Origin: Marsupella aquatica
Lineage: Eukaryota > Plantae > Marchantiophyta
Reading direction: 5' to 3'
Assembly: GCA_973895155.1 (NCBI GenBank)
Contig: OZ316898.1
Location: 15,282,330-15,346,329, forward strand
DNA: 64,000 nucleotides
Shown here: in pieces, positions 17,038 through 52,468 of the stretch
How positions within the stretch are numbered: position 1 is the first letter of the stretch
Layout of the letters: every line of letters starts with the position of its first letter
The notes under the pieces: generated by a model
Database searches by the model: none
What the model was told of the DNA's origin: nothing
What the model saw: only the letters and a program-made list of their open reading frames with translations
Translations under genes and position numbers: made by a program

Positions 17038-19309
17038 TTCTCCAACTTGTCCTACCAAGCAGCTTTAGGATGCCCCAAAGGATGTCGCAGAGACAAATGC
17101 CCTTCATGACAGCTACCCCTTATGTAAGAATCCTTCACTGGAGCTCTTCCTGTCGAGGTTTTAATTATGAACTTATTATTTGCAGTCCGTGAGTTAATAA
17201 AGCAGATTATCTTCATGCTAAGCATTGCTGTGATTTTATAGTGAGAGAAATTTAGACTGAGAAAGCTTTAATGAGAGCCTCCAAACCAAATTGTGGATTA
17301 AATGAAGAACCTGTTGATGTGCAGTTATCTGATTTGGTTCCCAAGAAATGGGAGGTGCAGGAGGGCTGAGGTTTTGTTCTCTGAGGTCTTTACAAGTCTG
17401 TCCGTTTCTGACTCAGATTGTTGTGCTAACTCTAAAATAAAAGTTCCTGGACTTCCATATGCCGCACGGCAAAAGGCATCTGGCTGGATCAAAGCCACAT
17501 CACATTTGTCTGGATCGTGAATGTTATCAATCTCGGTATCAAACTAGTTCCCTATCTGAAGGAACGAAGTGAAAGTTGTAGCTTGCAAAGTCAGACTTCA
17601 AAGGAAGCAACTTTCAGAATTAGTACGTGGGTCTACCTAAATTCCAGCAATCTCAGACTGTCAAACCAAGAGCCCATTCCCCACAGGCCAACTGCACGTG
17701 ACGGATCCGAGTTGTTTGCACCACAAAAAAACGTGTATATTAAAGTTCAAGTTCTCATGGTTTTGAGTGCCAATAGTATTTTAGATTAAGAATGGAAACC
17801 CGTTTGAACAAGTTTAAAAACAGAGGTGAGAGTCCTGGCTGAAGTGTGCTTGTTCAGGACGTATCAGATCCATCGCCATACAGGAAATTCGGTGTCCAAT
17901 CCAACAAATGATGCTTGATGCCTTCTGAATAAAAGATAAATCCATGGTTTGCAGACGAGTGAACTAACCTGTGCAGTTAGTCTCCAAGTGAGCCTTGCCG
18001 GAGGCCACGATCAGCACAGGTCATCAGCCCTTCACATCATATCCTCCGATTAACGTTTAATATCTTGTACTAGACGGTGCTAGTTCACACTACATTATTT
18101 AGTTAATGGTGACGTAGTGAAAACAATCGCATGGTTCTGTTTTCCAAGGAGCCACAATCCTTATTTCAAACCTTTACAAGTTACTATGACACCAACAATA
18201 TCATTATTGTTTTCAGACCCCTTTCTCATGTTTTGTGCCCATCAGAAATGATTCTAAAGCACAACCCCCACTTATTAAAGGATCCCTACAACAAAATCCT
18301 ACAAACCAGGATTTGATTAAAGACCAATAGAAATAAGTTCCCACCAGAGATTCAAAACAGGATTTTATGATCCACAAATATTGGCCTTTGGCAGTCAAAT
18401 GGAGTATGTAAATTTGAAAATGTTTTCAATTGAGGCTTGGTCAAACGGACTACCCCAAAACAAGCTCGGCCATTCAACCAACAGGTTATAGTTTTCCAGA
18501 TTTGGACATGTCCTCGAAGTGAGATAAAACTCAATGGATTTCACATTTCCCTAACCCCAAACGAACTTTGAGTATAATTGAAGGGGTATTTTTTACTGAA
18601 GTTGGATATGTTTGTGGACAGTTTTGTAGGCAGAACTCAGCTCAATTGACGAAGCTGCAAAGAAACTTCTGCAGGCTTCAGAGCTTTCAAACTAAGAGCA
18701 ACCCCACCCGTGGCCTTCAATCACATCGCATTGGGCAGACTACTGAGTCCTTCCGGCAGCTGACCTCTAGAGAGACAATTAGGCTGGATGGGTTCCGCAC
18801 CCATACCCTGCACACATCCCACAAGTCCATTTGGCGAGCCATTTGGCAGCACGGGACCATGGGAGGCCCAACATCATCATGGCCAACAGGGGGCAACCTC
18901 ACCTCGTAGCAGGCACGATCCAAAATTCCACCCCTTCAGTCAGTATGACTTTGTCCGTCTGCTTTGGAGCCCACAACTGCCTGCCAGTAGAGAAAAGTTG
19001 GCAGGGGTGACACTTCGACTTTGGTGACTTGGGCTGACAATGCAATTTCTGCAGTGGACCACCCCAGTTCCCTGATGGGTGGGGATGGTGAAAATTTGCT
19101 AGATTCCACCTCTTGGAAAAGGTCCGTCCCTTTGGCAAAACCATTGGTATGTTTTTTGTCATCCTATAGCAATTTCCCCACCTAGCCACCGGTCTCACTA
19201 GTCAACATCTAACTGGTATCCTTAATTTTAGGGAGACTTGACTGCCACAAACTAATCTAAGAAAATTAGATAAAGAATCTTCTTAGCATCTTGTCCTTCA
19301 CATAAATTA

Positions 19310-20834: not shown

Positions 20835-22739
20835 AACTCCATTAGCCAGAATGTGATTGCTACCCTCAAGTCTAGGGAGATTTAACAGTCAAAAATCATT
20901 CTAGGAAAAATTATATAAGGAACATTGTTAGCATCTTCTTCACACAGGTGACATTGGCCACATTGCAAATGAGGAAATATATTAAGATAGCTCTTGCTTG
21001 TAGAGGTATATGCTTGATGGAACCCTTTCCAAAAGAAATTTAGGTGATAGGCCCTTACAAAACTTTTGTTACAAACTAGGCCCCCTCCGATAGTTTTGTG
21101 TCAAATTTTCTTGTAACATTCCTCTGAGGAGTTTTAGTTTGATACTATCACCAATAAGAGCTATAATTGTGAAGTTTAGAGTCAAACCGAGAGTCAAGCC
21201 ATGCTTAATGACAAATACACCATTGGGGGACCCGCCTAGTAATGGCCGCCGTTGTGCAATTTGGGAGTTCCTAAGTGAAGACAATATGGTTCATGTCTTC
21301 ATGTTTTAATTTTGTCTTTAGGTTTTCACGAAACCTATGCATAGGGTTTGCATGATGTTTAGACGTTTCTATTTGTTCTTTTGTCTAAGTACGGAATGAT
21401 TCCCTCTACTTTTGGCCATTGGTCCCTATTGCAATGTTTACAAATTGTCTTCTCAAATCTAGACCCCTAATTTGTCTAAGTATGGAAGGAACCAAAAATC
21501 TTTTACTCTTGGCTGTTTTCACTTGTTGCAACACCTTGACATATTAACACCCTGTGTGAAACAAAGCCACCATGGACTCAATCATAACGGGAAAAATTCT
21601 GCTAGCCTACAGGAACTAGACTAAATATCTAGACTAAATATTGTATGATCCCACTGTCCTCTAGCGATGGATCCCTTAAAACTCTATAATCATGTGAATA
21701 CATAATCCTTTATATCTTCAAGCATAGGCATATTCTATAATCATTTGAAGACAATCCATTATGTCTTTAAGCATAGACATACGCACGGTGGACTGTGATG
21801 CAACGTGCAATGGATTTCAGTGGGAAATGTACACTTTACCATGCATTTAGGCACCACATAAGAACCATGTGCACGAAACCTATGTAGGGGGCGTAGTTGG
21901 TAACAACATTTTTGTGGGGAGCGTATTTTTGGCAGCTTGGCTTTTTCATCAGACCGGTGCGCTGCGGGTGATGATCGGTTGTTGCTAGGGGATCATGTTT
22001 TTATGAGCCTTTTTACGGAGGTTTTGGTTACCAGAAGTGTACACTGAGCTCTTAAGTTGGTTTTAGGGATTCGGGTTAGCTTGGAGGCGGCTTTTTGGGG
22101 TGGAAGCTGAGCTAAGTTTGGGGGAAGGAGAGTGCAAAAGGGGTTGCAAAGTTCAGAGTTGTGTGCTAGCAGGATTGTTTGGTGACGCTGCATAAGACAT
22201 CTCCAAAAGAGGAGGACAAGACGTGCAAATCAACAAGGGCCGAGGGTTTTTGCTGTAGTGAAGAATTGTGAAGAGGAAGAGTGGGGGCAACTGTTAAGAG
22301 AAGTGGATGGAGATTAACAAGAGTTGAGCCTGCGTAGACAGGCTACGAGCTTAAGGCATTAGCAAACCGACTATTGTAAGCTGACGCGACACGGGCTTTA
22401 AGGTAGAGAAAGGAGAGTAGCAGCTACAAGGGCCTGCATCAAATGAGGTGCACTACGTTTCAAACCAAAGGAAAAGGGGAGCAAACATTGTTGTTCGTCT
22501 AAATACTGATAATCCAAAGGAGTAAGAACAAGTTAAGAGAAGATATCAGGGCATTTCTATGCCAACGGGATCCGGGACAATCTTCCTTTCTGCTGACAAA
22601 CTGAGAGATTCGACAGCCACAGTGGGCTGCTCAAGTGGTGAAGATTGACCCGAGAGGAGAGGAGGTCGTCCGACATCTAAAGGTGAGATTGACTGTTTTC
22701 TCAACTTTCTTGGGAGCAAGGATAGTCAATTCAAGCAAG

Positions 22740-24462
22740 CCTATGGATTATGATGGTGCACGCGTAGGGGAAGAGCAGGCCTTGCACCCAATTATATAGA
22801 AAGAGAGAACTATGCTTCTCAGGGAGCTCCGGAATCATACAGCAGACCGGACTCACGCAGCATGCCCTTTCAAGGCGGTGGTTGCTATTCTCAGGCAAAC
22901 TCCTTTAGGCGAACACCTTTTGTCCTGCAGCGACCGTATGACATCTTTGAGAATCCAAACCAGCCACGGGAGCCATATTTGAAAAGGACCTGGCAGCAAG
23001 AGAATCAAAATGCAGGGGGTTTTAGATTTGAGCCAATTAGGACGCAGCATCAGCCGACTGGTAGTCAGTCGGCAACTGAATGGAATGCGGACACGGCTCC
23101 TAGTGAGAGATCTCCGACCCCACCAACATCTAACATACCAGCCAATCAGCGAGAGAGGACTGCAATCAAAAAGAATGCTACATCTGGTCAAGGGCGGGCG
23201 ATGGAAGCAATAACTGAGGATTTCATCAACATTCTCAAAGAAATCGGGGAGGTTTCTAAAGGGGACTGGAGTACAAAACTTGTTGCGACAGTGGAATGGA
23301 CACTGGAGGAGGCGGCCAACAATGTTTGACAGTTGTATAACTGCGCTATGTTGTGTTATTTTATGGATAGAGCGCCAATGTTGCCCGTCTTTAGAGCTTG
23401 GGTAGAGGAAATGATGGTCTATGGCAGGAATTGGCCGGTCTTGCAAGTGAAATTTGTGGGAAAAAATTTCTACCTCATTTTGTCTTTGAAATGCTAACCA
23501 CAAAGATTTAGCTCTTTCGGCTGCGCCTTGGTATGTCAAACGCAAACTTGTATTCACCTTCCCATGGGAACCTTCGATATTTGCACAGAAAGATACACTA
23601 AGCTTCCAGTATGGATTGAGTTGCCATTTCGTGCACTGGTATTGGAAGGCTGTCGGATCAAGATTGTTGAATCCTTGGGCAAGCTACTGCACTACATTCA
23701 GGGTGACAAGTACAGCTTGTATCCCCACAATAGAGCATGTACTCTATGGGACACTGAACGAGAAGTGCCATTCAGTGCGCGGGTTAAGATTTGCGAAGAT
23801 ATAAGCATTTGGCAACCAATTCAATTTAAGAATATACTGTTCCATTGTTTCAAATGTAACAAGAAGGGTCATGTTGCTCGCAAATGCAGAGAAGGTATGG
23901 ATGAGGTGGTGGCCCCTGAGGAAGAGCATCATGGGGATGAGGACAAAGCACTTTCCCTTGATGAAAAGGATGAAGAGGCTGAAGGGGATCCGGAAGAGGT
24001 GTTAAGGAATCAATTGGCAAGGAATTTACGGGCCAAAAATGGGGGACACCGGGCTACCCCAGAGGAGGGTCTGACAGAGATGGAGATAGTCACAACAGAC
24101 AAAGCGCGAGAGCACACAAATATGGAACCTACACAAGGAGGGGAGGACTTAGGCAAAAATCAACCAAAGTTAAGGGAAGAGCCCACTACAGTGGAATCCG
24201 AGTAGAATCTCAAAACAATATATGCTTTTGCTCCTAAGAGGAGAGACCTTTCCTCTTTGCTTGTAGCGACTGTAGCTACCTTATTAGATACAACCATGAA
24301 TCGAATGGCAGAGCCAAAGCATATATGTTTGTCTGAGAACTCATCTGTGCGATCCAGCTCTCCCTCAAGGAGGGAGGACCAGGGGGCTTTCTCATACCAC
24401 GGGGATTCAAAAGCTGATCTGGACATGCCAGAATATGAAGCTTACATCTCTAGCAAAGATAC
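22740..24462 (+). pseudogene. L1-type LINE ORF1 remnant (DUF4283-like region + CCHC zinc knuckle)
   Basis: FRAWVEE...WPVLQVKFVGKNFYLI, LPVWIELPFRAL, IVESLGKLL, WQPIQFKN..HCFKCNKKGHVARKC. Several stops and frameshifts. Cut at ~24463 by a CACTA end. Confidence 0.85.
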
Positions 24463-25708
24463 TACTACATATTCGGTCATTTTGTGAAGCTTATTTCTTA
24501 GCCCCTCGGAGATTTGCCATTCAAAACACATTGCAACGGTTGCAAAACAACACGCTTCGCAACTTGCAATGCCCATTTCATCGCAAAACCAGGTTGCAAT
24601 GTCAATGGCTTCGCTAACTGCATGCAAAACTAATCACATTGTATACTAAAGCGAAACGTCTAAAATGCGAGACCTGTGTAAGAAGGCGCCGCTATCGCTC
24701 CGCACTTCCGAACCTTTCCGCTTTATACTGTTACCAAACCGTTTTCATGGCAAACCAGTTTTGATTTAAATGGCTTCGCTAATTTAACGAAGGTGAGAGA
24801 ATGACACGTTTGCGATGGTGTGAGCTTTAGAGACATTACGAAACAGATAATATGGAAGAATTACCATATGAAAGCCATGGATAAATTACGAATTTGTTGT
24901 AATGGGTCTTTTGAGATTAAACTAGAATGGACAGATTGAGAAGCAATTCATGTCGCAAGTTAGGGAAACGCATAGTATGGAAAAAGTCTATAACGTATTG
25001 CATGGCCATTTTGTGAAGCCGTTGAGATGAATTCATGTTCGCAAATTACTCGCAAACTTTGAACCAACTTATATGAAGAAAAAACACCAAGGTAGAATGG
25101 TTGGAGGGAGGAGGGAGGAGCCTGGAGGTTCAAGGATGCAAAGGGGGAGTTTAGGGTGGTTATGGGTCATATTGGCAAAATAAGGAAGGAGAGAGAAAAC
25201 AAGTATGTCTATGTTGAAAATGTATAGTGTAAAATAGACATAAATTATCAATCACTATATGTGTCATATAGATCATTTCAAATTAAACCGTCAAATGGAA
25301 ATATAGAAATGCTTTATGTATATAATAACCAAGAAGTATGACATGCGTAATAGTCTAGGCTTGGACCAAAGTGTATATATATATACATATCCCTCACACT
25401 TGGTCCTCACCTTCAGGGTCATCTAGGTTTGATACAACAATTATATCTGGTTTTTCTGAAACAATGGATCGAGACCGTGGCACACATGTGATGACCAGCG
25501 ACCACTCTAGGTCGGGGGGGTATGGAATGTAGAAACACTGCTCTACATGAGCTGGGAAAGTAAATGGTTCTGATATTTGCCAATGAGATGCCTGGAAACT
25601 AGTGGCAGATGTCTTCAACCATGTGAACCCACTCTCATCTTGAAGTACAGTTCGATTTTGACCAGCAAGATTTACTTTGAACCACTTGCACTTCAAGACA
25701 TATTCCAC
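24463..25708 (-). mobile_element. Truncated CACTA (En/Spm) element: terminus plus transposase 3' fragment (DUF4216-like, 25394-25708)
   Basis: Terminus TACTACATATTCGG (CACTAC with C>T). Clustered subterminal (GC)TTCGC(A/T)A motifs. The ORF VLKCKWFK...VLQDESGFTW...SEPFTFPAHVEQCFY...EWSLVI...PRSR parallels the C-terminus of the intact TnpD at 47737-48496. Confidence 0.75.
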
Positions 25709-25709
25709 A

Positions 25710-28700
25710 ACGCAGTATCCTCTCAGTCAAGTTGAGCTTCCTTGTCCAAAACCGAGGCGATTGAAAATGGAACATGTTGGTGAGTTTGCCGTTCAGAATG
25801 TCGATGACATTGAGAAATTGGTGGTCGATGTCATTGAAAAGCACGTGATGTCGTTTGGAGTTGATGCAAATGGGTTACCAAAGGAGCCTCCTTTATGTCA
25901 TCTCGTTCACATGGAGGTTGTACGCACTCTTCAGAGGAACAGTCAGTCGATTGAGAAGCTGAAGGACTCATTCCGGACATCTGGATACAATTTGTCCATT
26001 GGCATGCGCTTTTTTGTTCAGCCATCCAACGCTGAAGGTAATCCACAAATTTGTACAGATGAAATTTGGGGCACTTGGGATCCTCTTTGGATCAGAACCA
26101 GTTGTTTGAAGCGGAATGTGAATCAGACCCTGCTTTCCACGTCCTCAAAGACAAAATGTTCTATGTTTTTGATGGAAATCATCGGTTGTTTTCGTGGACT
26201 CAAGTCACAAATGAGAGTCCAGAGAATCCTAAGTATCATCCTCGCGTGCAATGCACAATTTTCAAAGGAGACAAGGCATCAATCATCGAGATTGAGGCAG
26301 CGATGCATATTGTTAACCAATGAGTTTACTTTCACCACCAACTACTCTTCCCAAATTTGATTGTTTCCCTTCAACAATTTCTCCCTTTTTTCAGGTTGTG
26401 TTGTTAGGTTAGCGCCAGGCGCTATTTCTAATGTCCTCAATTTCATAGGACGGGACGGGCAGTGGTAGAGTCTTCTTGGATTTTGGATGCGGACAGAATC
26501 AGGAGGATTTTGGCTCATGATCTGGAGTACTACAAACCCATAATTGATGAGGCAAATTATGCAAAATTTGAGAAGACGAGGAAAGGAACCCGAAAGGGTT
26601 TGTGGTTTACCAAGAAGATGCCGATGGAGGCGTTGGTATACATCTTGTATGAAAACAAGATCAAATCGTACTCGCAGCAATTTCAGGTGATGAAGAACCA
26701 GGCGAGCAATTTTGGCGCTCCATGGTTGGTCAAAGAGACGAATCTTTGACACAGTCAGATGATGAAGGAAGCCACTAAGGAGTGGACCGTCAAAACTCCG
26801 AAGCTCACTTCCTTGCTAAGCCCAGAGTTTGAAGATTTCATGGACACTTGCGCTGAGATGTATTGTCTTACAGATCGACTCAAATGTGAAAAGGTCCCTG
26901 AAGCTGTATTCTGCACCATGGATAGAGCTCGCTTGTTCACTGCCAATTTGACATTAGATCCAAAATTGCGAAGTACATTGCTTGTTGCACATTGTACTCC
27001 CGAGTTAAGGAAACAGTTTTTCCATCCACTCAAAGTATCGGACGACCCCGTGAAGCAGTGGTGCCACACCTGGCATGTTTGGAACACGATTGAGGGGATA
27101 GCAACTACTCTCCTCAAGGCATGTTTGAAGGAGGCTATGGGTTCATGCACCGAACAACGTCTTACAACACTAGGTGGAGAACTGATTCCCTTTGAGAAGT
27201 TGAAGGCTTTGATTGTAGATGATTTTAGAAAGTATGGGGATTCCGTAAGGGCCAACTTTTTCAACACTATTTAGGAGTCCAAGTACGCTGACAAGGAGGA
27301 TTTGAGTGAAGTGAACCGTAAGAGAGCCAAGAGATATTTGTATCGATACTATGTGAAAATGGAGAGGAGTGACCCGAGCTATTTTTGGGCTTATCCTGGT
27401 GCCTTCCAGAAATGGGCCATTGTGAATTTGAGGTCCAAAGCGTTTGGAGACTTTCTTGGGTACACCATGTATCCACCGGAGGGAAAGTTTCCCCCAAGGA
27501 AAATGGCAAAGTGGGAGGTTTTGCATTGTCCGTGGTATCTTGACACAGACAAGTGGAATTCATCGTTTGATGAGAGAGAGAAAGATGCTTTTCACAAGTT
27601 ATCAAAGAATTTGGAGCCCAGAAACATTTTGTAAGAGATGAAGCAGGGAATTGATGCCAAGATTGATCTCTCGGCGATAGAGCTCCAACGGATTTGTGAG
27701 ACGCAAGTCATCCAAGTTGCAAGGAGTCAAAAACCAAGAGCAAAACCCAAGCAAGAAACAACCCCAAGTGGATCTCAAAAAGAGACCAAAAAAAGTGAGT
27801 TCCTAATTTTGTAGCTTCAACTCTTCATAATTGTCAATGTTTTATTTGGCTAGCGCTAGGTGCTGTTATTAATGTAATAATTTCTCTAGCAGGATCTCGG
27901 AAATTGGATGCGGGGTTGGTGTCGGGTAATGCTTTGACTGCAACTCCAAAGCCTTCTCGTGACAACAGTCTTGGGAAGGATGAGGATCCGCCAGAGGGGT
28001 TGGAGACCCCGGAGGATGTGAGTGCTCCGCCAGTGGACACCACGAGCACTAGGAAGAAGAAGAAACGTCGCGTTTCTACTTCCGGTGGGTCTCACAGGGA
28101 AATGCTTGCGGCGACTGGTTTACAGAGGAATGTGGGGGACTTCAAGGGGAATAAAACCAGGCACACATTCGTGGAGTCTACCTTGGCAGAGTTCTACGAT
28201 AGTGTGTTTCAAAGGGAAGAGAAGCCATCTTGGGTTTCTTAGGTAGAGGCCTGGGTAAAGAATCTTGTGAAGTCGGGTTCTTGGTCGAAGGGGGTTATTA
28301 GAGGTGGAAAAGTTAGGGCATTTGGTGTCGATGCTGGATTTCTATATTTGCCTACCGGATTGAGGTCATCACTTTTTGACAAGAAAGTCCCAAAATGGAA
28401 TCTTCAAGACCACTCTCTCCCTAGGGCTTTCTTTAGCGCAATGGACCCTTTCCTATCGGACGACGGACTTCTGGCTATTCTTCACACTGGAGAATATGAC
28501 CAGATTTTGGAAGTGATATCTGCATGCCAGCAGTTGCAAAAGTTTGATTGTATTGCATTGTATACAATTGTCATGGGGTTTCCTTGTACAAACCTAAGTC
28601 TGACACTCAGGTAATTAATGATATCCATTTTGGCTAGCGCCAGGCGCTTATCTTGTATATCGTTCATTTTGACCAGCGCCAGGCGCTAATCTATGTCTTT

Positions 28701-29333
28701 TTGTTTCATGACCTTACTATTCTATTGTTTTGTAGATCTTCACGCTGCGGTTGGATATATTCGGTCGGGTTTTGAGAAAATCAACAATACCAAAAGATCC
28801 CAAGTTCCATCCATTGTCTCCTTCCGAAGATCCTTCAATTACAAATTTGATAGGACTTCTGTCTTTAAAGTTGGATCCAATGCCAGAACTTGTGGCTTGT
28901 GGAAACGGGCAGCTCACAGTTGGTTTTATGCAGTCTGTTATAGAGATCATCTCCTGTCCAGGGGATATTGTGATCGACTGGACCTGTTGCTCAGGAAGCT
29001 CATTCATGGCGGGAGACTATTGTGGTAGATTTGTTGTTGGGGTGGAAGGGCGAACAGAGTTTGTCACGACTTCAAAGTGTACCTTAGCTGACCTTTTGGA
29101 GCCAAAGTCAACTTTGACTCCAGAGAAGAGATTGTCAAGGAAAGGGAAATTAAAGAGAAGTTGGACAGAGTAGATCAATTTTGAACTTTGATTCCAAAGA
29201 GAGCGAGTCGGATGTTGTTGGGGAATCTGATGAAGAAGAGATTCCAGTTGTCAATCTAGGAGACGACGAGGCAGAGAAAACAAATCCCTCAGGATCAAAA
29301 TATGATTTCGAGGATGAGGAGTCTTCTGAGTAA
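25710..29333 (+). pseudogene. Spliced ParB/Srx-like domain + beta-class amino-DNA-methyltransferase-like fusion gene, decayed; exons ~25710-26319, 26449-27794, ~27889-28610, 28736-29333
   Basis: ParB-like segments: VRTL..IEKLKDSFRTSGY and KMFYVFDGNHRLFSW. MTase-like segments: VDAGFLYLPTG (motif IV position), MDPFLSDDGLLAILH, and FMQSVIEIISCPGDIVIDWTCCSGSSFMAGDYCGRFVVGVE (motif X-I-II pattern). Successive ORFs share frames across single stops (26747, 27272, 27632, 28240, 29171). One frameshift near 26095. Confidence 0.72.
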
Positions 29334-29719
29334 TGCTCGTAAGCTCACTCCAAATGTACGACTGTTTTCAGCAACATATTTTTGGTAAACTTAGTGTTTG
29401 TTTTAATACGGATGAAACTTTCAAGTCAAAGTGGAATACGCGGAGAAGGTTTAAACTCCAGAAAACGATCGCTGAAGCTATGGAGATTACACCAGAAAAA
29501 CCATTTATTCTCCCATCCTATGCTGAGAAAGCCGCCAGAAAAGTAGAGAGGTCTCGGACATTATTTTGGGAAACAAAAGGTCTGAGACTTAGAAGAGGTT
29601 CTGATAGGAAGTTTTTGGTGAACAAATTTGTGGATGACATGTACCGGAGTGAGTTTGTGGACGACGAGGCGAAGTCAACCGATAGATCCGATAGTAGTGA
29701 GACAAAGTCATCTGAGTAG
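29333..29719 (+). CDS. Uncharacterised 128-aa ORF downstream of the ParB-MTase gene
   Basis: Open, co-oriented, basic middle and acidic tail. No family recognised. Confidence 0.35.
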   Translation: MLVSSLQMYDCFQQHIFGKLSVCFNTDETFKSKWNTRRRFKLQKTIAEAMEITPEKPFILPSYAEKAARKVERSRTLFWETKGLRLRRGSDRKFLVNKFVDDMYRSEFVDDEAKSTDRSDSSETKSSE

Positions 29720-30223
29720 ATCAGTTATGAGAACCCCATTTGTATAATTTCCATCGTATAAAAATGTTCAGACATGAACAAATATTTGTAGTCAAATTGG
29801 TATATTGTGTTCACAAGTGAGCTTGGAGAAATATGAAAGTTCAATATTTCACTTTAGTGCCTAGCTTCATGCCAGAGACTATTGCAAAACTTGGATTCAG
29901 CTTCTTTTGGGGACATGCTTTGGGTGACTCGTATTTGTATAGCGTCTGGCGTTAACCAAATAACATGTTTTTGGAATTTTCAAGGAACGAAAATGATATG
30001 GAAATGACTTTGTTTTTGATAGCACCAGGCGTTAGCCAATAATATGCCTTCCGGAACGAGTATTACCGTTGAAGTTTTTTTCGATTAAGTGAAATGAACG
30101 TTAGCACCCGTTGGGGCGATATTCCCCGTCGGTCCATTCTCATGCGTTGGTTTGGTCGTATGTCCATTGAATCCAAAAAACAACGATCCTTTGAGGGGGC
30201 ATACATTCGAGTAAGCCCTCCAG

Positions 30224-30847
30224 ATGAGTTTCATTCCAGATGTTCACACTGTGCTCTTGTGGTTTGGAAAGTATACTTTGCGCTTGAAGGTTATTTCTTG
30301 CGTTACAAGCTTGAGTAACCCCGATCAAAGTAACCGTCAATGGACGATATGGAGCGTCCTGGTGTCAATGTCGATAATGTTGTGTGGCCCCAGAGAAGTG
30401 CCAGCGTCGGAGGAGCAGCAGACCGATCAGACGGTCAACTTTGGGTCGATTGCAGACACCTAGAGCCGCGTGACCGAGACTTCCGACATAAGGAATCATC
30501 TCCAGCTGCCTGGGGACAAGGGTATGAGCCCGGGTGAATGGAACATTCCTTGGCTTCCTGATTCTCCTCCAAGGCCATTTCAGGAGAGATTCTCAATTCA
30601 TTATCCAACTCCCAAACATCCTTCATCGAATGTCTTCTGGGATGTGGAAATTCAGTCTGCCAAATTTCTTGGTCGTATCAATTTCTATGATACAAACCTT
30701 CCTGAGTCTTCATCGCGCCCTTTGCAAAGGCTTCCTAGTGCGCGGTACGTTGCAACTCAAACATTTGGCTTTCGAGAGAAGCCAAAACGCAAGAAGGCAG
30801 GGCTCAACGACGAATGTAAATCTATGTTTGATCCGGGATCATCCTAG
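30224..30847 (+). pseudogene. Uncharacterised ~207-codon ORF broken by one stop (30461-30463)
   Basis: ORFs 30224-30463 and 30470-30847 are in the same frame. Palindrome copies at 30020 and 30872 flank it. Confidence 0.35.
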
Positions 30848-31799
30848 GATCATGGTGGTCATGGTCTTGGGTAGCGCCTGGCACTACTCATTTCATGGAG
30901 GAGACCCTTATCTGGTTCGTAGTTTGGAATCGGAGGAGGTGCACTTGGTGCTTCGTTTTGGGGTTAGGTTAGGCTTGTGAATGGGTTATTTCACCGAGGA
31001 TTACTCTGTTAGAATGAGGTTGACTACAGTCTGTAGGGCTCAATGACGGATTTGGGTCTTTTTCTGATCCGGCATTCTTGAATAGAATTGTGTGGTTAGA
31101 CTCTTAGGCCTTCCGGAGATCCTTGTTTCGCTGATGCGATCTGTGATCCAGTGAATAATTTTGAATCGGTGGAGGTGGACTTTAGGCTCCTCATTTTGGA
31201 ATTTTGTATTGTGCTTCATTAGTAGAAGCGTGTATACACAATGTTTTTGATTTAGTAAAAATCATTTTGGCTTGAGTTTTGTTAACTGGTATCATTACGT
31301 TTTTCATTTTTGGGTAGCGCCTAGCGCTATGATGTTTCATGGTTGTGTTTCATTACGGTATTCAATTTTGGGTAGCACCTGGCGCTATGATGTTTTCACG
31401 TTTGAGTCGATCGCTATGTTTGGAACCCTGGATGATTAAAAGTGAACATTGCTTTGGATTTTGAGAGTTTTTACCCATTGACTAGTCGGGTTATTCATGG
31501 AATATTCTCTTTGCACATGTTATTTTGGGATATATTGTTGACATTTTGGTTGAATTATTTTCCTATTTCCTTTTTGTTGTTTCCTGTTTGGATTTTCCTG
31601 TTTCCTGGCACAGTGTTGATTACCCATTTAAAATATGAACTTTGTTTTTGTTATTGTTAATATTCAATTGATCTCATTCACAAGTTTTCTTATTTGAAAG
31701 ACCATGCACTCTATCCACAAAACATTTTTGTTACATTCTTTCAAAATACTTTTTATTTGTAATAAACTTTTTTGAGTTTTAGGATTTACAACATTTTTG

Positions 31800-32330
31800 A
31801 AGTCAGTAAATCACCTCTTCTGTTGGCCTTTCCTAAGCTAGGGTCTCGAGCTTGGTTCTGGTCAGGTCATCAGGCCAGATTTAGTCATCAATCATCTCTC
31901 ATTGGCCCTCACTACAAAGTCTCATCCGCCATCGAGCTTCCCTCTCCTCCTCACTTCTCTTGTTCTCTTTTTGCTTTCCTTCTACTTTCTTCTCCTTAGG
32001 CACTATTTGCCAATCCCACAACATCAAAAAACCTTCAACTAGAAACTTCAAATCCTATCATTTCTAAATCCTCTTAAACAACCTTCCTTCCTCTAGTGTC
32101 CTCTTGGTCAAACAAAATCTTGACAATGAACAATTCCTATTATGGATATCGTCCCAATCACCGGGTTCCACTCTTCAAAAAATAAAATTTCTACTTCACT
32201 TACTCTACTAGAGCTCCAAAACACTAAATGCAAAGAGGCACAAGTAATACACACTTCCAATTGGAACCTCTTAATTAATTCCATGAATAAGTTCATCCCT
32301 CCTCTTGGTCCAAGGCAAATGAGTTAAAGC
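31800..32330. repeat. Diverged repeat; inverted homolog at ~41660-42080
   Basis: AATCACCGGGTTCCACTCTTCAAAA...CTACTAGAGCTCCAAAACACTAAAT matches the reverse complement of 41750-41820 (AATCACCAGGTTCCACTCATCAAAA...CTACTAAAGCTCCAAAACATCAAAT). Confidence 0.75.
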
Positions 32331-32744
32331 CCATTCTTTCGGCTTCAAATAAATCAGTCCATCACTATTCACGACCAGTTTTTGTATTTCAACTTAAGAT
32401 TTTCCTGGGATTTCAACTCTAAATCTTCTCTTTGTCATCTGTTTCATCATGCATGACCGACACCTTTCATTTCAATTTTGTGTACCCCAAAGTTTAAAAG
32501 AAACAATATGTCCAATTGTTTCATTAAGCCAAATCAAGGTTTTCTTCCTTCCCTATTGTTTCTTGTGTGTCACGGCTTCTCATCTTTGAATCACAGCTCT
32601 ATCGCACAACTCGGCATGGATGAACACAATTCCCACAACTACAGGTTTGTTCGTGGTTTGTGAGACAACATAAGGAGCTCTCTCTGTTGTTATCATGCCG
32701 CATGAATTCCTGTTTTCATTTGTTTTGTTTTCAGTTTCCTTCTA

Positions 32745-33298
32745 TTATACAAATTTTTTTATTGTGATCAATTCCAAAAGCTCCACCTCAAACTCCTCTG
32801 CGTCCTCCACCAACATGGCATTTGGATGCAAGACCTGATCCCGATTGGGATCGGTATCATTGACAAATTTCTTGAGCCGGCTACCATGGTAGCTTTTTCC
32901 AATGCCCATTTCCTTGGGTGTGCAACGACAATCCCTAGTGTCGGAAGACATTGTCAAACACTAGACTGACAACCTCTTGGGCCAAAACCATTTTTGTAGT
33001 AGGCAGGATATATGCCATCTTGGAAAAACAATCTACAATTGTCAAGATTGAGAACTTTATTGTTGTGAGACTCATGTAACCCAACAATGAAGTCCATAAA
33101 GAATGACACCCATGGCGCCATGACTACTGGTAACGGTTGTAGTAGTCCTCCTTTGTCCTATAGACCGCTTGGTTCTTTCGGCACAGTAACAACTTTGCAC
33201 GTGGCAAAGAATTGATTGCTTTATGTCTGGCCAATACACATCGTGTGACATACTGCGGCATGTAGCAACTTTTCCACCATGCACTCCCAAAAGGCAAG
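32745..33298 (-). pseudogene. Chromovirus-type Ty3/gypsy integrase and chromodomain remnant
   Basis: HGGKVAT...VYWPDIKQSI..HVQSC..C, GLLQPLPV..APWVSFFMDFIVGL, then YHGSRLKKFVND.DPNRDQ...VEDAEEFEVE. Internally deleted and frameshifted. Confidence 0.75.
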
Positions 33299-34303
33299 TG
33301 TGGTGTGTCCCATGACTCTCTAAACCCAAGAACCCACCTTGAACAAGATGATTCACATCAGTTTTGCTCTTGCCAAGGCCGGTTCCGCGGCTTGTCGGCA
33401 TGGGACGCTGCTAAAACATTTTTACTAACTTTTTACCCACATATACTGGACAGATCCTTCATCGGGTCATGAGATATAGTCGCGGAACTCGACTACCTTA
33501 ACACTTAGCTCCGACGTCGCTGACTCCAACACCGAGCTCCCTTATGGTCCAGGCCCGGATAGGCCATCCGAGGAGGACTTAGCATGGGGAGACTTGTGGG
33601 CAATGAGATGTGGCACTAGCGAAGGCAAGGAGCCAAGCTAGTGACACACACTAAGGATTTAGGCAAGCTAAGAGCTGGTCGGGTCAAGGGGAAAGGGGCC
33701 AGTCTCAAGGTCGACCATCTGGGCCCCCGGACGGACTTTGAGTTCTAAGGGGTTGAGTGTGAGCTCCTCTTGGGCCCAAGGCCAATGGAGTTGACGCCAT
33801 GGGCAACGGACGCTTGGGGTGTGAGTTATGGCCCGATCCGGGTTTGGCCGATCAGGAACCCCGAGCGGCAATGAGACCTCAGGGCCTAGGCATGAGCACT
33901 GGGTCGGTCCGATCACAACGAGCTAAGGCACTCTGCTTGCGGATGCCTACGACAAAGTTACGGGCGTTGTCAGTTGGTGGCGCGCCCAGTATGCGCGATA
34001 GGTTCCGGGTTGGAGGCCAAATGTTTAGGGACCAAAGTTGGTCCGGGGGTGGCAGGTCTCCAGAAGCATATATGAGGGGAGTGGTGTCTCCTTGAGGGCC
34101 AAGGGCGAGCCAAAGTCGTGAGCTCCGACAGTCGCGAGCTCCGACAGTCGCGACACTAAAGGAAAGCGCCAAACGGAAATGACAATATCTTTCCAACGGG
34201 AAGTCCGTTGGAGGACTTCTTGGGTGCGTTGGAAAGCTTTGAGTAAAGTTATATCATCAATTATCAGTCATTTCCATCAGTCGACCTGATATCAGTCGCC
34301 ACA
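33299..34303 (-). mobile_element. ~1-kb LTR (TGTGGCG...CACCACA on the minus strand), no internal region
   Basis: Inverted TGTGG/CCACA termini. Its last ~185 bp match 62646-62831, the LTR end in front of the PBS and gag. Flanks (GCAAG / TCATC) do not form a TSD. Confidence 0.7.
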
Positions 34304-36894
34304 TCATCTTAGAGAGGCCGCCAAGATGCGGCACCAAAAAAAATGCGAAAAATTTGATGAAGAAAAAAAAACTTTTTTTGAGATTTTTTTCACTATGGGT
34401 GTCCGTACCGTACGGACATCACTTCTCGGTGGGGTCGGCCGAGATGGACATGTGTCCGTACGATACAGACACCAAATTTTGGCAAAAAAAATTTCAATGT
34501 TTTTTTTGTTTTGAAATTTTCAAGAAAAATTCCTGTTACGAGCAAACTAGAAAATCTAAAAATGTGTCATTAAAAGTCACAATTTTCAAAATAATTTAAA
34601 ACATGACAATTTTTTGCTAGTGTAAGGCGATACTATTACTAGCTCTGGGCGCTAGCCAAAAAATATCGACTCACACAAAAAATTTAATATTTTTTCCCCA
34701 AAAAAATTCCCAAAAAAATTTCAAAAACTTTACCACCTGTTTGTTGTTACGAGAAATCATTTGTTGTTTGTTGTTTGCTGTTTGCTGTTACGGTGGTTAT
34801 ACCCGACGAAAACCGGGAGTTGGTTGCTAGAGTCGGGGCCATTATGGTCCCGGCGTGTTGGGACAAGCTTTAGGACAAGGTACACTATTTGGGCCATGAG
34901 CATGTCATGCGGTCAATTGGTGATGGATAGGTACGAGGGGGTACCCAGGCTGCGCCCAAGAAAGGAACTGCCTGGATGAATAGTGGGTGTGGGTTTTGGT
35001 TCCGGCTTATGGCATCAGGAGGACCTAATGCTAACCTATTTACCAATGTCTGTTGAGCTTGAGTTAGGATGCTAGACTTGGCAAGTTCTAGATCTTGAAG
35101 GGTTACTTACCAAGGTGTTTGGTTGCTTGTGCAGACAGTGAGGACCGTTGAGTAGCGGTTGTGTTGGAGAGCAAGTGCGGCTTCGTATGGGAGGGGCCGC
35201 TGGCAGTGCAAGGGGCACTAGGTTGCTTGCTTGAAGTATTCTGTGAAGGCATTTAGGCACCAGGGGCACTTAGACGTGAGTGTTGGGATCAGTGAGGGTG
35301 CTGGGTGGCAAGGTCCACCACTGATATGCACCGGCCTACTCTAGGCCTTTTCGTCCTCTCTTCCCTTGGTCTCCCTTTAGGTATGTTTGGATTCCGCCGC
35401 CGGAATGATGCCCAATTGGCTTGGGTAGCTGCTAAGATTCCTCTCACCTCAACACATCCAACTCTGCCTGCTCCTGATCAATGACTTCACTTACTTCTTT
35501 TCTCTCCTGTAATTGATGTGGGCAATCTTTGCACAATTGATGCAACACACAACTAGAAAGATGACTCATACTGACTAAGTTATACCGTGCAACTACGATA
35601 CAAAGAGTACTTCTCATACACAAGGTCTGCGAACTAAGCCCGAAGGCCAACTCTATTCAGCTCTTAGGCATGAGCAAACATGAATATACACAAGAGTCAC
35701 TGCATAACTAACTGAGAGCGTCTTTGACTAATTGATCCCAACCTTGCTGGTGCACTAAAAACTTGCTTAATAAGAAGGCCTGAAGTCCCAGATGCACAAG
35801 TTTTTATCTTGGCAGCGCACCTACCTATTTCCTTGCTACGTAAGCCAAATCTACCTCTAATTGGAATCTACCTATGTACAACAGGGCAAGAGCACAAGTG
35901 TTGCCCTTACAAGTGGATCCGCAATCTCACTAATCTAAGTGTCAGGGCCGCTTCTTGGCCCTGATCCTAATCATAAATTTGGAGGTCCACGCCCGCTCTG
36001 TCCACTCACGCCTCCTACCTCCATGTCCGCCCTCCCTAAAAGAAATGGCGCTCCTCCACCGTCATGACGCTGGTGGCTGGCCCTCAATGGACGCCCCCAA
36101 TCCTTCCTTGCCTACCAATGTAGGCGTCCCGTCCTTTGACAGATTACCCACTCCTGACTAGGTCAACCCATCCTCGGCGTGACCGGGCCCCACTCCTACC
36201 TCGGCTTTTGCTTCTCCAGCTTCTGCTCCCCTGGCTTCTACTCCCTCAATTTATAATAGTGGTGGGTCCGCCCCGGTGGCTTTGACACTGTCAGTCTTGG
36301 AATTGGCCATCTTGCCATAGTGGTCCTCCTCATAGGCTCGTCCTATGAGTCGGGTTGTCTTGTCCTCCCAAGATTGCGGTTGATACCAATCAATGATTGG
36401 CCACGTTGAGTCAGTGCTCGTCATAGCCTCACCCAGCTGGTCTTCTGGGCCTACCTCTAAGACTGCCACTTTGACAGCCACTACCTCACATAAGACTGGT
36501 GCCATGCTTTCTACCTCAACCACGGTGGCCTGAGGGACCGTGTTGCTCCCTAACCTGGAAGGTTTTTGCTTCTTCTTGTCCTTCCCTTCCATGGCAGCCG
36601 ATGCCTTCCCCTTGCCACTTACTTTTGATAAGGGTGAGGATTCCTCGGCTTGTCTCTCGATCAGTACCACGCTCTACAACCTTGTTGTTGCCACCGGGGG
36701 TCCATTTGTTATTGCTTGTCGATTGAACTCCTCAGACAAATTTCTTCAGCCGCTCAATTTGGTTGTCTGCCCACCTCTGCAAGTTCTCTCATTTACGCAT
36801 GGCATCCTCTAACTCTTTCTGGGTCTTGTCTAAATTCCCCTTGAGCTTTCTCCAACTCCTTCAGGTTGTCGTCCAACTCCTTCCGTAAGGCCGC

Positions 36895-38240
36895 TGTCAA
36901 GATAATTCAATTATTCATGATGAAATCATTATCACTAAGTATATTATTTAGTATATAGGTTAGGTTTATATTTTGTTACAAAGTAAGTTCTAAATAGTTT
37001 GACTATTACTTATGTGCATGCAAGGTAAGCAACTATGCAAACCACAAAATGCATGCACAAATTGTTTTATTTACATGCATTAGACTTTGTTTTATGTGCA
37101 TGCAAGGTGAACAAATGTGCAAGCCACAAGGTGCATGCACAAATTGTTTTATTTGCATGTATTAGTTTTTTAATGCGCATGCAAGGTGAGCAAATGTGCA
37201 AGCCACAAGGTGTATGCACAAGTTATTTTATGCGCATGCAAGATGAGCAAATGTTCAAGCCACAAGAGGCATGCACAAATTATTTTATGCGCATGCAAGG
37301 TGAGCAAATATGCAAGCCACAAGGTGCATGCATGCACAAATTGTTTTAGGTGTATGCATTAGTCATTTTACTTGCATGCATCATTTGTTTTGATTGCAAT
37401 AATACACAATTCCTACGTTGGATATGTGTCACTTGATTTTCATCCAAGCGTTTGGGCGTAATCCATGCCCTCTTGGATTCAATATAAATAAAGTGGTGAG
37501 GGGCACTCTCTCCTCATTCCCATATTTTGATAATTTTTGTGTCGAAGCGATCATCTTTTCTTCTCTCATCTTTCTTTTCTATTCTTTGCCTTATGTACAT
37601 AGTAGTGGGGCATCCTTTGGCCCGGATAGCAAAAAAATGAGTGATAGACTTATAGATGGGACCTTAGGGAACAAGGTCTTTTTGGGGACTTAGGGGTGGG
37701 GCATCCTTTCGCCCAGATAGCAAAGAAACAAGAAAGTCATTATGAATCCAGGAGGAAGAGATATCCCTAATCTTCCCCTTTGTAACCCATTTTGGGTTAG
37801 AGTCCATCTTTTAGACAAGCCATCCATGAGGCAACAATTAACTTATCACTTTGGAGCTCAATTTATAACTGTTGTTATGAGTTCTAATGAGCCAATAGTA
37901 TACCCAGTGGTGTCTTACCGAGAGCAGTGGGAGTGCATTATCTTTATCCTTTATTAAAGTCATGGATCTAAATAGGAGTCCAGATGACATTCCTAATTCA
38001 TTTTCTCTTGGAGATATTAGGATCGTATGTTGTAGAAAAAATAGTTTCCAAGATATGTTGATCCGCAAGTATGGTGAAGTAGAATTTAATAGTATATTAG
38101 TTTCACCGAAACCTTTTTTAATACCCACTACCCTTTTTACAAAAGTTATCATTTTGGTTTTAGTGTAGAACTTATGGGCATACAAGGTTGACTTCATAAG
38201 AGCCAACATGCTCATACCAGAAAACACGATCACCTGAACA
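36895..38240. mobile_element. Solo LTR with 4-bp TSD (CCGC) inserted in the ORF cassette
   Basis: TGTCAAG...CCTGAACA termini with CCGC at 36891-36894 and 38241-38244. Removing it restores collinearity with 61175-61215. Confidence 0.8.
37010..37385. repeat. ~59-bp tandem repeat, ~5-6 copies
   Basis: Unit approximately ATGCGCATGCAAGGTGAGCAAATGTGCAAGCCACAAGGTGCATGCACAAATTATTTT. Confidence 0.9.
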
Positions 38241-41200
38241 CCGCCCTCTCCTCCTTGGTTGCTTACAGCTCTGCATTGAGCTCATGCACGACTTCAAACT
38301 CTATCTTATTCATCTTCTCGTAGGTTTGGTCAAGCATGTCATCCTTCTTACGCAGGTTGGCTTGAAAGTTGGCCAACATGGTGTCGAGGTCCTCCTTCAA
38401 CTTATCAATGCTTCTGTAGGCCTCATCCAAGTTGTCCTTTTTTTATGGAGGGCCGTGCGGAATTCTTTAATCTCCTCCTTTAGTGCCCGCTCCTTCCTCA
38501 GAGCTTTGATCATGGTTTTGTTGACGATCGTTAGGTGAGTAGCCTCTGCGTCTTTAAGCTTCTACTTCCACTTCTCCTTCTCCTTGAGAGCCTCGGCCAA
38601 ATGCCCTTGGGTCTGGGCAAGTTTATTCTTGATTAACTGGTTATCAGCCTTGGCCGTATCTAATTGCCCTTGCATGATGTTTATCTCATGCCTCCTAAAC
38701 TGCAACTCATGTTGAGCTTGCTTGGTTGCTTTTGGATCTCCAGCCTTGGCTTCCTTCTCTCTAAGCCGCCAAATGACCTCCTCCTTCATACTCTCCAAGG
38801 CCAGTGCTTCCTCCAACTGGCTCTTCTCCAACCTCTCCCTATTGAGAAAGGGCCCCAACTCTAACTCGTCACCAAAGACTTCGAGGGCGAGTAATTCGCA
38901 CATCCTCTTGTACTCCAAGACTCTGGAACGTGCATAGGTGAAGTGGTTAGGAGATGCCCACATCTCCCAACGCGGCCTTTGTTCCCAAGTAGTCCTCCAA
39001 ATCTTGCCAAATGTGGGCAAGGGCCCAACTTGGTCCTTTGCAAGCCGCCGAATGTCCTTTGGCCATCCTCTACTTGGCAAATTCTTCTCCTTGGCTAGGG
39101 TTGCCCTCTTTAGATCTCGGAGTTGCTCCTGCAACTCTTTGTTGGCCTGTTTTCTCCCATTGTAATTCAGAGGAGGGACGTTTGGTGGGGGAGACTCTGG
39201 GCTTCTCTGCTGTTGCAGGTCCCCACGCACCACTCTTGGAAGTGTGGGAATGAAACGGCCATAGGTCCGCACCCCTGGTACCAAACAATCTGACCCATAG
39301 CCAAAGTCATCCTCGTTGTATTCCTCCATGCCCTCCCTTCGGCCTGGAGTATTGGTGCCTATGGATCCTCTCTTGGGCTAGCTTCGAATGCGGCATCCTG
39401 TCGGGAATTGTGCATGTGTGCGATTCTCTCCTCCGGCTCCCACACCCGCCTTCCTCTCTCCTCATCATGACTTGGAACCTTGGGCCCTTGTCCCTTGGAT
39501 TCTGGTCTTGAGGCTCCCATGTACATTCGCACCCCTGGCTCATCTTCCGTCTTCCTTCTCATTACGCCCCTGAAAAACGGATCTGCTCTAGTGGGTCTTC
39601 TGGTTCCTCCCTCCCCAACCATGCCCTGTACCGGTGCCTCTACTACCATTGCTATCTTTGCCTTATAGATCATCTGCAACAGGCTTTGCATGGCCGGTTG
39701 CTGCATCGGCATGGGTTCCAGCATTGGCCTAAAGATCTGAGATATCATGGGGCTGCCTGGTGGTTCGGGATTCCTTGTTGCCGACATCGGCTCCGGCTCC
39801 TCCTCTGGTGCCCTTGCCTGTAGGGGGAGTGTTGGTGCAAAGGTCTGGCTCCAGGCATACCGGCATAACAACAGCATGTGATAACCAAGCCAAGATATGC
39901 TCCCTTGGGCTACCACTTGTTGTTCCTCTTTCAAGATCTTCTTTAGTTGGGCGAGGAGGTATCCATTGTAGTCCCGGCTTGGGTTTGGCCTCTCTGCCAG
40001 GTAAACCTGTGCCTTGCCAATCTCCGGTCTTTGCAGGTTACAATGCATTGTCACCCGCTGTCGTTGGGATGGAAAATAAAGGGAGGGAAGTGAAAACCTT
40101 GTTTTTGAGTTGGAGGTATTTGGTGATGGTTTGTGAATTGGAAGAGACTTTACTTTAAGAAGAAAACTGTAATATGACAAAAGAAGAATAGAAGGGAACA
40201 GAGATTACCTTTGGTTAGGAGAACTTTAAGGCAATTATTGTGGTAGTGACATGTGGTGGCATGGGAGGATTCAAAATTGATAAGGACATTGAGCACATGG
40301 CAGTTGAGGCGCGGAGGTTAGAGAGGACTTCAGGGAGGTCAATGAAACGGGCCGGGCATTTATAGATGGAAGAGAGGGATTGGCTGAGGGGATGTGAATG
40401 GTAAGGAAATCGGGGAGATCGAGAGGAGATCGTGGTCATTGGAAGAATTTTCTTTTTGTGTGTGGAACTCAAGGCTGGAATGAAGTGAATAGATTTTGTT
40501 TTTCAGTGAAGGAAAGCGGATGGAATTGTGGTGATTGCACGGAAGTTTTTCAGTGAAGGAAAAGAAAGCGTCTAGTTCAAAGACGATGGAGGAGAAAACT
40601 TAAGTGTAAATCGGTGACAATGCTGAGACTAAGATCGTGCAACCAAGATTATCTAAAAGCTAAGACTTGAGGACTTAAGATCAAGCATGATGGAGTATGG
40701 ACCCGAGAAACGGAAAGGAGTTCAGTGGCAATAAGGGAACTGGAGTCAAAGGGCGTTTGTTGTTGTTTAAATGGAGAAGATTGAATCCTTTTTTGGGGCT
40801 GCTGGAGAGGATCAAAAAGGGGAGGGGTTAAGGATGAGAAAGAGGGATTGTAGTGAAGTTAATTTTGGAATTCAGGCGAACTGAAGACAGAGGCAAAGAG
40901 AAAAGCGTAATAGCACTTGTGAGGAAGAGAAACTTTGGTACAAGAAGAGCGAGTGCTGATCAAACACACAAGTTGCTAGGCCCATAATGAAAAGCTCTGA
41001 AACAAGGAAACTACTGATAGCCCAACTTGGTACAATTTGAAGATTTATGTGGAGTTAGTGATACAAAAGACTGTTGGGTATGCATTCAACATAAGCGCTT
41101 CTGAACTAGAGTGCAAGTAAGGAGAGATTGAATGAGAGGAGATCGTTGTCATTGAAAGTATTTGTTTTTTGTGTGTGAAACTCAAGGCTGGAAGGAAGTG

Positions 41201-43562: not shown

Positions 43563-44388
43563 CACTAGTAGAAACCGGGGGGTATTTAGACCCCATTAAA
43601 CGACTATTCAGTACCGTATAGGACTTGGAAACGACTGGGAAGGACTCTAGTCCTTTATAGGACTGCGAGTCGTATGTTTTGTTACTATAATCAACTGAGT
43701 CCTTTATAGAACTGGTTTATAAGTCGTTTAATAGACTGGATTTTCAGTCTATTTTAGTCTTTGTGTGGGTAGCTTTGGTGAGTCGTTTTCAGTCTTTTAT
43801 GGGCTGCGATGATGAGTCGTTGGGAACGACTAAAAAGGTTATGGAGGGTAGTCTTTAAATATACTTTGTGGGGTAAGTATAAGTCTTTCATGTCAACTGG
43901 ATATGAGTGATGAAGACCCCACTATACTACTTGGAATGAACTCACTCTTGTGCACAAATAACATATTGCATTCATGTTTTATTGTGTACTTGGAATGAAC
44001 TCACTCTATAAATTCACCATTCATCATGTTAACATTAGAATACATAGTTTCAGAAAGCCATCTTCTATACCATGTACACTAATATGAATTCACAGATTCA
44101 AACTTCATAGACTACAAAGAAGGTCACAAAGTATTCCTCTATACCATACACACTAATACTGAAATGATAAAATAGATTCAAGTATCATAGACAATCACCA
44201 TAGAGCCATAGTTTGACATCAATCACTTGTTTCATACATACAGAATTCAGAAATATCAATGTCACACACAACGTCTCCTTCATCCTCTTTACCAAATGGA
44301 AAAATTGGTACAAATATTTCTTGGATCTTTCCAAGGCAATGTCAAAATGTGACACAATTCACATGATTCTATCTACACTTGCATTCAG

Positions 44389-47300: not shown

Positions 47301-47559
47301 CTTCTGCTCCATCATAGTCATCATCATAATTATCAGGCGTCCCTTGCCAATAACTCTGGCTCCTTCTAGGGTATGGATTATGTGATTTCTCTCTAGCTGC
47401 CCACCTACCTGGGACTTGATGAGGGCCCTGTGCATCCTGCATAGGTGCATTTTTCTGTGAGCCCCCTGCATCTGGGTCTCCATCCATATCCAATCTTTCC
47501 TCTTCACCCCACTCTCCAAGCCCCATGTCTGTCTCCATGTCATCACCCTCTTCCCCCAT
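44389..47559 (-). CDS. CACTA TnpA-like protein (multi-exon; exon borders partly uncertain)
   Basis: Acidic and GRGG-rich N-terminus, then ILKQERHRLKRMW..PPPSLELDQWTQLI...KSELMSNAR, a coiled segment, and a C-terminal FHGKVVPDDHVVV...LPFPN...IADAVGSLVLWP typical of TnpA/Tnp1. GT-AG introns visible. Confidence 0.75.
46724..46795. repeat. 18-bp tandem repeat encoding (GRGGTP)n in TnpA
   Basis: CCACGGCCTG... four copies. Confidence 0.85.
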
Positions 47560-47736
47560 AGCTTCTGCACAGCACCCACAACCAAACAGGGAGAATCAAC
47601 ACACTAAATTCAAAGTATCAATCAATTTCATGCATATCCAACTATCCTAAACATCATTCCAGGCAACAATTCCCGTTTTGTGACTCTATGCAGGTAGTCA
47701 TCCTCAACCTCATACTTGCCAATCGCCAGCTGTTGC

Positions 47737-51439: not shown

Positions 51440-51765
51440 CACTATACACACGCACTCAGCACCCTGTCATTTTATTATGCAAGTGAAAAATACACTTCCT
51501 GTTAAGGATTTCACCCCCAACTGTACTTGCCAAAATACGTAACGTTCCAAAAAAACAAAAAAACAAAAAATATAGGTGCCTGAGTCATGTACCTATTCTC
51601 AAGTGAATGAGACAAAATTCCTAAATGTTTGAGGGTGTCAACTCCTCCGCTGTCCTCACATGTACTGCCTCTGCACGTACATCCATGACCATATCAGAGT
51701 CCAATCATGTATAGTCATAGACACAGGTGCCAGGTGCGAGACCGGTGTGAGATGTCCTCATCTTA

Positions 51766-52299: not shown

Positions 52300-52468
52300 A
52301 CCCACCAAAGTCTTCAGCCAAATAGAGCCCAGCAAGTAGATTCACAGTCACACCCCACGCAGCAGGAAACAACAATCACTTCAACTGCGACCAACCATGA
52401 CAAGATGAGTTAGTTCAAGGATCACATTTATTACAAAATTGTGTTTTATACAAAAATATGAGGGACTC

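Follow-up and report, generated by a model that had tools for sequence, protein, structure and literature searches.

The window analyzed here, 64,000 nucleotides of the Marsupella aquatica genome (contig OZ316898.1, positions 15,282,330 to 15,346,329), carries a spliced gene with a ParB-like N-terminal part and a methylase-like C-terminal domain. Ten copies of a 15-bp palindrome, TAGCGCCWGGCGCTA, sit in its introns and in the DNA downstream. The palindromes are real, non-random and family-specific, and we regard it as somewhat probable that they are binding sites for the gene’s own protein, which would mark or regulate its own element. The locus extends the layout of a ParB-like gene plus palindromes to a land plant. 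Self-binding has already been published as a hypothesis, for transposons of algae (PAG3 of Bostrychia, Sola1-1 of Ectocarpus); a literature search that lay mostly outside subscription sources found no paper on a land-plant ParB-methylase transposon with palindromes.

Palindromic sites in introns and spacers

The gene comprises four exons on the plus strand, with ~1070 codons by eye and introns of 129, 95 and 125 nt. An earlier note on this DNA had listed ten coordinates for the palindrome, and all ten hold, with zero to three mismatches each. The perfect copy (1 of 10; 26410..26424) lies in intron 1 (26320..26448), whose donor has decayed to AT. Intron 2 (27795..27889) contains one copy with three mismatches (27851..27865), and intron 3 (28611..28735) contains two with one mismatch each (28635..28649 and 28674..28688), 39 nt apart in a local duplication. 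Downstream of the gene follow two copies with two mismatches (29940..29954 and 30020..30034), three with one mismatch (30872..30886, 31315..31329 and 31373..31387, the last two in a 49-nt direct repeat), and a final copy with three mismatches and a full right flank, GCCAAAA (34640..34654). Nine of the ten palindromes are inside a ~6.6-kb repeated unit that also includes the gene and a second decayed reading frame (24974..31600, with approximate ends taken from contig depth and single-copy flanks); the tenth, at 34640, is outside.

At up to two mismatches, TAGCGCCWGGCGCTA has eight matches in the 64 kb, against a chance mean of 0.02, and none of 100 shuffles reaches eight. The copies at 27851 and 34640 come in addition. 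An unbiased dyad scan of the whole window places this palindrome at rank 1. Candidate sites were scored with a leave-one-out profile of the ten sites, including 6-nt flanks; the ten score 21.8-29.6, whereas the best background reaches at most 11.3. The earlier note had seen no copy elsewhere in the window. A stray three-mismatch match at 24264 scores 3.6 with its flanks and is background, and a weak eleventh site is present at 34618 (score 13.5). The longer form proposed at the same time, TTTTGG..CCAA, is a composite: the flank matches exist, with the left flank matched at 4-6 of 6 letters in nine of ten sites and the right at 5-6 of 6 letters in three of ten, but no single copy has both flanks perfect.

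The sequence common to the copies amounts to only ~21-27 bp. At seven separate locations over 5 kb, the dyad and about six flanking letters are common and the DNA beyond is unrelated. Membership in an unrelated miniature inverted-repeat transposable element (MITE), an alternative raised along with the original observation, does not hold for any of the nine sites within the unit, which have no shared body, terminal repeats or target duplication beyond those ~21-27 bp and partly sit in introns of 95-129 nt.

C>T and G>A changes account for ten of the 15 deviations from the consensus (6 C>T and 4 G>A, no strand bias), a pattern that fits the decay of formerly better sites in methylated DNA. CG and CWG decay quickly in methylated plant DNA, and the dyad is rich in both. 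None of the variant places listed between family contigs and this copy (40 of 2,426) falls inside a site. In one contig of run X4, the region of the first intron 3 palindrome (window 28614-28667) is missing and 17 other letters stand in its place, so the number of sites likely varies among family copies.

Within the gene, the placement is as first described: four of four sites lie in its three introns and none in exons, although introns make up only ~10% of the gene span (P ~9e-5; exon boundaries were placed by eye). In both intron 1 and intron 2, 24 nt separate the end of the site from the acceptor, and the site in intron 1 folds into a hairpin of 6 bp. Such features might be expected of palindromes that work in the pre-mRNA, as hairpins or as signals for splicing. 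Folding z-scores are nevertheless -1.8, 0.3 and -2.5 for introns 1, 2 and 3, the intron 3 sites pair with each other and not individually, another five or six sites are located beyond the gene’s 3' end, and the decay has no strand bias. We consider a role in RNA extremely improbable.

A different dyad in a relative locus

The earlier note had suggested asking whether diverged families carry different palindromes, and the answer is positive in one relative locus, L001. An alignment of the exon 2 relatives fetched this single locus from metagenome contigs, out of 227 candidate stretches. Protein identity to the window gene is 69% for exon 1b and 45% for exon 2, and 8 of 38 four-fold sites are identical, which is chance level (synonymous sites are saturated). 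Intron 1 of L001 has the same position and phase as intron 1 of the window gene but is 818 nt long and filled by a 20-bp-period array of a 16-bp palindrome, GAAGCC-N4-GGCTTC. At up to two mismatches this palindrome has 12 matches in L001, all 12 in the intron, where 0.15 are expected. The TAGCGCCWGGCGCTA dyad is absent from L001 even at four mismatches; conversely, the L001 dyad has three weak matches in the window, none of them in the unit. Two diverged families thus load the same intron with different dyads, which makes the motif family-specific. In both families, local duplications carry sites.

In the 5' part of the L001 array (420-545) the dyad is a variant, GAGCTT-N3/4-AAGCTC, and repeats at another period, a hint that the motif has turned over inside a single intron. 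The L001 palindrome has no CCWGG center, so this center is not conserved; that speaks against the CCWGG of TAGCGCCWGGCGCTA, initially pointed out as a methyltransferase target, being a conserved methylase target. An AGC.C core common to both dyads and a likeness of TAGCGCCWGGCGCTA to the KorB operator TTTTAGCGGCTAAAA were both treated as possible chance.

The array also bears on the possibility that these are neutral repeats. In that case, local duplication or template switching would have spread a small palindromic seed in the window, and L001 would carry an unrelated minisatellite in the same intron. Some sites do lie in short duplications, and the L001 array, a tandem repeat with a 20-bp unit (n = 1), does not resemble the dispersed single sites of the window. 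Yet what the seven separate locations over 5 kb have in common is limited to the dyad and ~6 flank letters, no terminal repeats or target duplications surround the sites, and CG and CWG, in which the dyad abounds, are quick to go in methylated plant DNA. In the L001 array, moreover, the four letters of spacer on each side are more variable than the arms, which are conserved. Neutral spread is clearly improbable in our judgment.

The ParB-like, methylase-like gene and its proposed role

Exon 1 (25767..26319; start by eye, frameshift near 26100-26117) encodes the ParB-like domain. It contains a ParB-type GxxR motif (DGNHR, with GNHR at 26174-26185) that is also found as GNHR in L001, and the same 50 residues give weak ParB-superfamily matches in three libraries (PHROG 1033, E 0.0018; DGQHR, E 0.008; DUF1015, E 0.04). 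Exon 2 (26449..27794) spans ~450 codons with three premature stops, is predicted to be mostly helical and belongs to no known family. Exon 3 (27890..28610) has one stop and encodes an acidic/basic linker followed by the likely front half of the methylase-like domain. Exon 4 (28736..29330; frameshifted, end approximate) would encode the S-adenosylmethionine (SAM)-binding end of a beta-class N4/N6 methylase-like domain and an acidic tail. It weakly matches PF01555 at positions 167-219 of 221, the last quarter with SAM-binding motif I (E 3e-4 to 7e-4), and DpnA (E 0.013), suggesting that the C-terminal domain is methylase-like and a putative N4/N6 methylase. In beta-class methylases, the catalytic motif (D/N/S)PP(Y/F/W) lies upstream of motif I. 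No VANC-type domain matches the gene; the ParB and methylase profiles match instead. Directly 3' of exon 4, a 129-codon open frame (29330-29719), basic then acidic and without a family match, represents one more exon or else a gene of its own.

Structure and homology searches returned few relatives. The model of the ParB part has a predicted local distance difference test (pLDDT) score of 45.5, the exon 2 model has no Foldseek match under E 0.001 (best Z 5.9), and PDB profile searches gave nothing useful. A protein search with exon 2 recovered three relatives of similar length (34-46% identity) and none among longer proteins, and the ParB core has none among proteins of 385-1225 aa. Viral contigs contain neither a relative of the gene nor a match to the extended motif, phage records gave nothing under E 0.8, and one relative was counted in prokaryote genomes. 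Gag-like matches to part of exon 2 in an Atlas search (at most 0.90, few shared features) were rejected as chance.

We propose that a dimeric protein would read the dyad. The sites would serve as loading points for its ParB part, which might spread from there, and spreading would carry the C-terminal domain over the element, leading to protection from silencing or to control of the element’s genes. The sites would multiply by local tandem duplication and would turn over together with the specificity of the protein, as VANC motifs do. The most specific version of this proposal is a working land-plant self-recognition system derived from ParB/parS. In it, a nucleotide-loaded clamp would dock on family-specific intron palindromes, slide, and lay N4-methylcytosine or N6-methyladenine (or block 5-methylcytosine), shielding only its own family from host silencing while site and protein co-evolve. 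This full system is a tentative idea that we hold to be unlikely. A parS function in the sense of segregation is also unlikely; no ParA ATPase was seen among the window open reading frames (ORFs) scanned (30 of 98).

Comparable systems are known from algae. Excerpts of PMC12477816 describe a 1104-aa accessory gene product of Ectocarpus Sola1-1_Ec32 with ParB-like and N4C/N6A methyltransferase domains, for which the authors propose self-binding and self-modification. The window gene resembles it in that both domain types occur together in a single protein of comparable size, on a repeated element. Sola1-1, likened here by description, comes from a brown alga, however, and its transposase and termini are known; no palindrome is reported for its family in passages and five supplement files of that paper. 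In the Plavaka (EnSpm) elements of the red alga Bostrychia, the accessory gene PAG3 is ParB-like and has adjacent tandem inverted-repeat arrays, which are read as parS-like self-modification sites in parts of bioRxiv 2025.02.11.637652. Inverted-repeat arrays at a ParB-like gene are thus common to both, and the L001 intron array resembles those of PAG3. As far as those parts of the preprint go, PAG3 differs in its fusion partner, a 2-oxoglutarate oxygenase (the methylase is encoded by another gene, PAG2), and in having arrays adjacent to the gene, whereas the window sites are single and dispersed through introns and downstream DNA. The switch of dyad from family to family is seen here. The PAG3/Sola1-1 type of architecture, a ParB-like N-terminus fused to a DNA-modifying domain, recurs in the window gene, although the profile matches are below curated cut-offs.

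The analogy with VANC anti-silencing proteins drawn in the earlier note fits both the placement and the turnover of the motifs. Passages of PMC5735166 describe the VANC motifs of Arabidopsis VANDAL elements as lying in introns, differing by family and growing by tandem repeats. The palindromes are likewise family-specific, located in introns and other non-coding parts, and multiplied by tandem repeats. According to the same passages, however, VANC motifs are 8-9 bp long and have one orientation, whereas those here are 15-16-bp dyads, and VANC function is proven, whereas the present system is known from sequence. By hypothesis, the gene’s system would be akin to PAG3 and VANC; the element is neither a VANDAL element nor a MITE.

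Bacterial ParB/parS (domain layout in sections of PMC7333895) and KorB/OB (silencing in sections of PMC11790492) share with this locus the GxxR motif in a ParB-like N-terminal part and several ~16-bp dyads on their own element. The ParB/parS system differs in that the gene here has no GERRxRA, no ParA seen, a spliced eukaryotic structure and a methylase-like fusion. The KorB comparison raises the possibility of pure autoregulation, in which the protein would bind the sites solely to repress its gene, as KorB does on plasmid RK2, and would lay no anti-silencing mark; this differs from our preferred reading in outcome, not in binding. KorB, a clamp of the ParB family, silences from 16-bp operators up to >1 kb away (same sections of PMC11790492), and the methylase-like domain may be inactive. 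However, motif and dyad scans of the window found no site upstream of the gene, and the presence of DNA-modifying domains in such fusions, across several lineages, points to a mark. Pure autoregulation is very unlikely in our estimate.

The preferred reading, with the palindromes as sites for the gene’s own protein, has several observations weighing against it. All ParB and methylase matches are below curated cut-offs. The fuller GERRxRA patch is absent from the ParB-like part, which has GNHRLFS instead, and by eye exon 3 of this decayed copy has no canonical DPPY-type motif (the nearest is YLPT near 28347). A helix-turn-helix was not identified in exon 2, for which the helical model is a weak one (mean pLDDT of 57). 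The L001 comparison covers one locus and intron 1 only, its motif was picked after viewing, and its shuffle control ignores tandem duplication. No transposase was found in the unit among the 30 of 98 ORFs scanned, nor were terminal repeats or a target duplication; the same sites may thus be the target of a transposase. Lastly, parts of PMC12704722 report that many ParB-fold proteins are not DNA clamps and that fusions of the ParB fold with an N6_N4 methylase are frequent in phages.

Such a phage fusion, with the same domain pair, is a plausible ancestral source by analogy. It differs in that prophage genes have no introns; here, in addition, a ~450-residue helical region lies between the domains. 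The ParB fold can bind cytidine, adenosine or guanosine triphosphate, and the nucleotide is not predictable from sequence (same parts of PMC12704722). Among eukaryotes, a ParB-HTH (helix-turn-helix) Dam fusion is described for chlorophytes and chytrids in portions of Iyer et al. 2016 (PMC4738411), and the text of the Marchantia DN4MT1 preprint mentions no ParB. With different candidate sites from two diverged families, the self-binding hypothesis is directly testable by reciprocal binding. If true, a bacterial DNA-clamp mechanism would have been reused in eukaryotic chromatin, and there would be a second route to sequence-specific anti-silencing.

The repeated unit and the rest of the window

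Contigs from four runs in two studies agree with the single-copy flanks at nearly every letter and cover 24974-31947 at ~7 to 175 times the flank depth, a ratio that does not give a copy number. The unit is repeated in this genome and is likely mobile or transposon-borne. This gene copy is dead, with four premature stops in exons 2-3, frameshifts, and AT replacing the GT donor of intron 1. At all four stops, the majority depth of same-species contigs reads a sense codon (from the 40 of 2,426 variant rows listed), from which it follows that the gene family stayed coding until this copy died. The second decayed reading frame of the unit (30130..30847, plus strand) has palindromes on both sides and no Pfam or PHROG match; it may be a second accessory gene. 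A low-copy remnant with a zinc knuckle (21842-24551), resembling a long interspersed nuclear element (LINE), lies immediately upstream of the unit.

The outlying palindrome at 34640 and the weak site at 34618 lie in a moderately repeated island (34224..34810) inside a high-copy long terminal repeat. What ties 34640 to the unit is the motif itself, and the site likely belongs to the same element. The island also contains a long imperfect hairpin (34349-34520) around the dyad TGTCCGTACNGTACGGACA at 34400, with CACTA just before it, which is possibly an element end.

The island and the second reading frame bring up another explanation, in which the palindromes are sites for a different protein of the element, either a transposase or the second ORF product, and the ParB-methylase gene is merely co-resident. 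Transposase-binding repeats are common in DNA transposons, the fully right-flanked site is in this separate island with a candidate element end, and the second ORF lies among five sites. On the other hand, four sites are deep in the introns of the ParB-like gene, the L001 array fills an intron of the same gene, and the CACTA element further along the window contains none of these palindromes but subterminal repeats of a different kind. We rate this explanation as unlikely, and continue to favor the gene’s own protein as the binding partner.

That CACTA/EnSpm element (43563-54620, minus strand) encodes Tnp2, DUF4218, DUF4216 and a weak PTTA match, and carries PHD-finger and BRCT cargo genes. 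It is separate from the unit, has its own subterminal repeats and lacks the TAGCGCCWGGCGCTA dyad. Its plant-type domains, other repeats in the window and the AT-rich introns of the ParB-like gene agree with a land-plant host. The regions 33300-40060 and 59440-62830 hold related retroelement copies in opposite orientation that are 72-94% alike in pieces. At 14700-17050 the window includes a spliced host gene, the final exon of which is TraB-like by eye.

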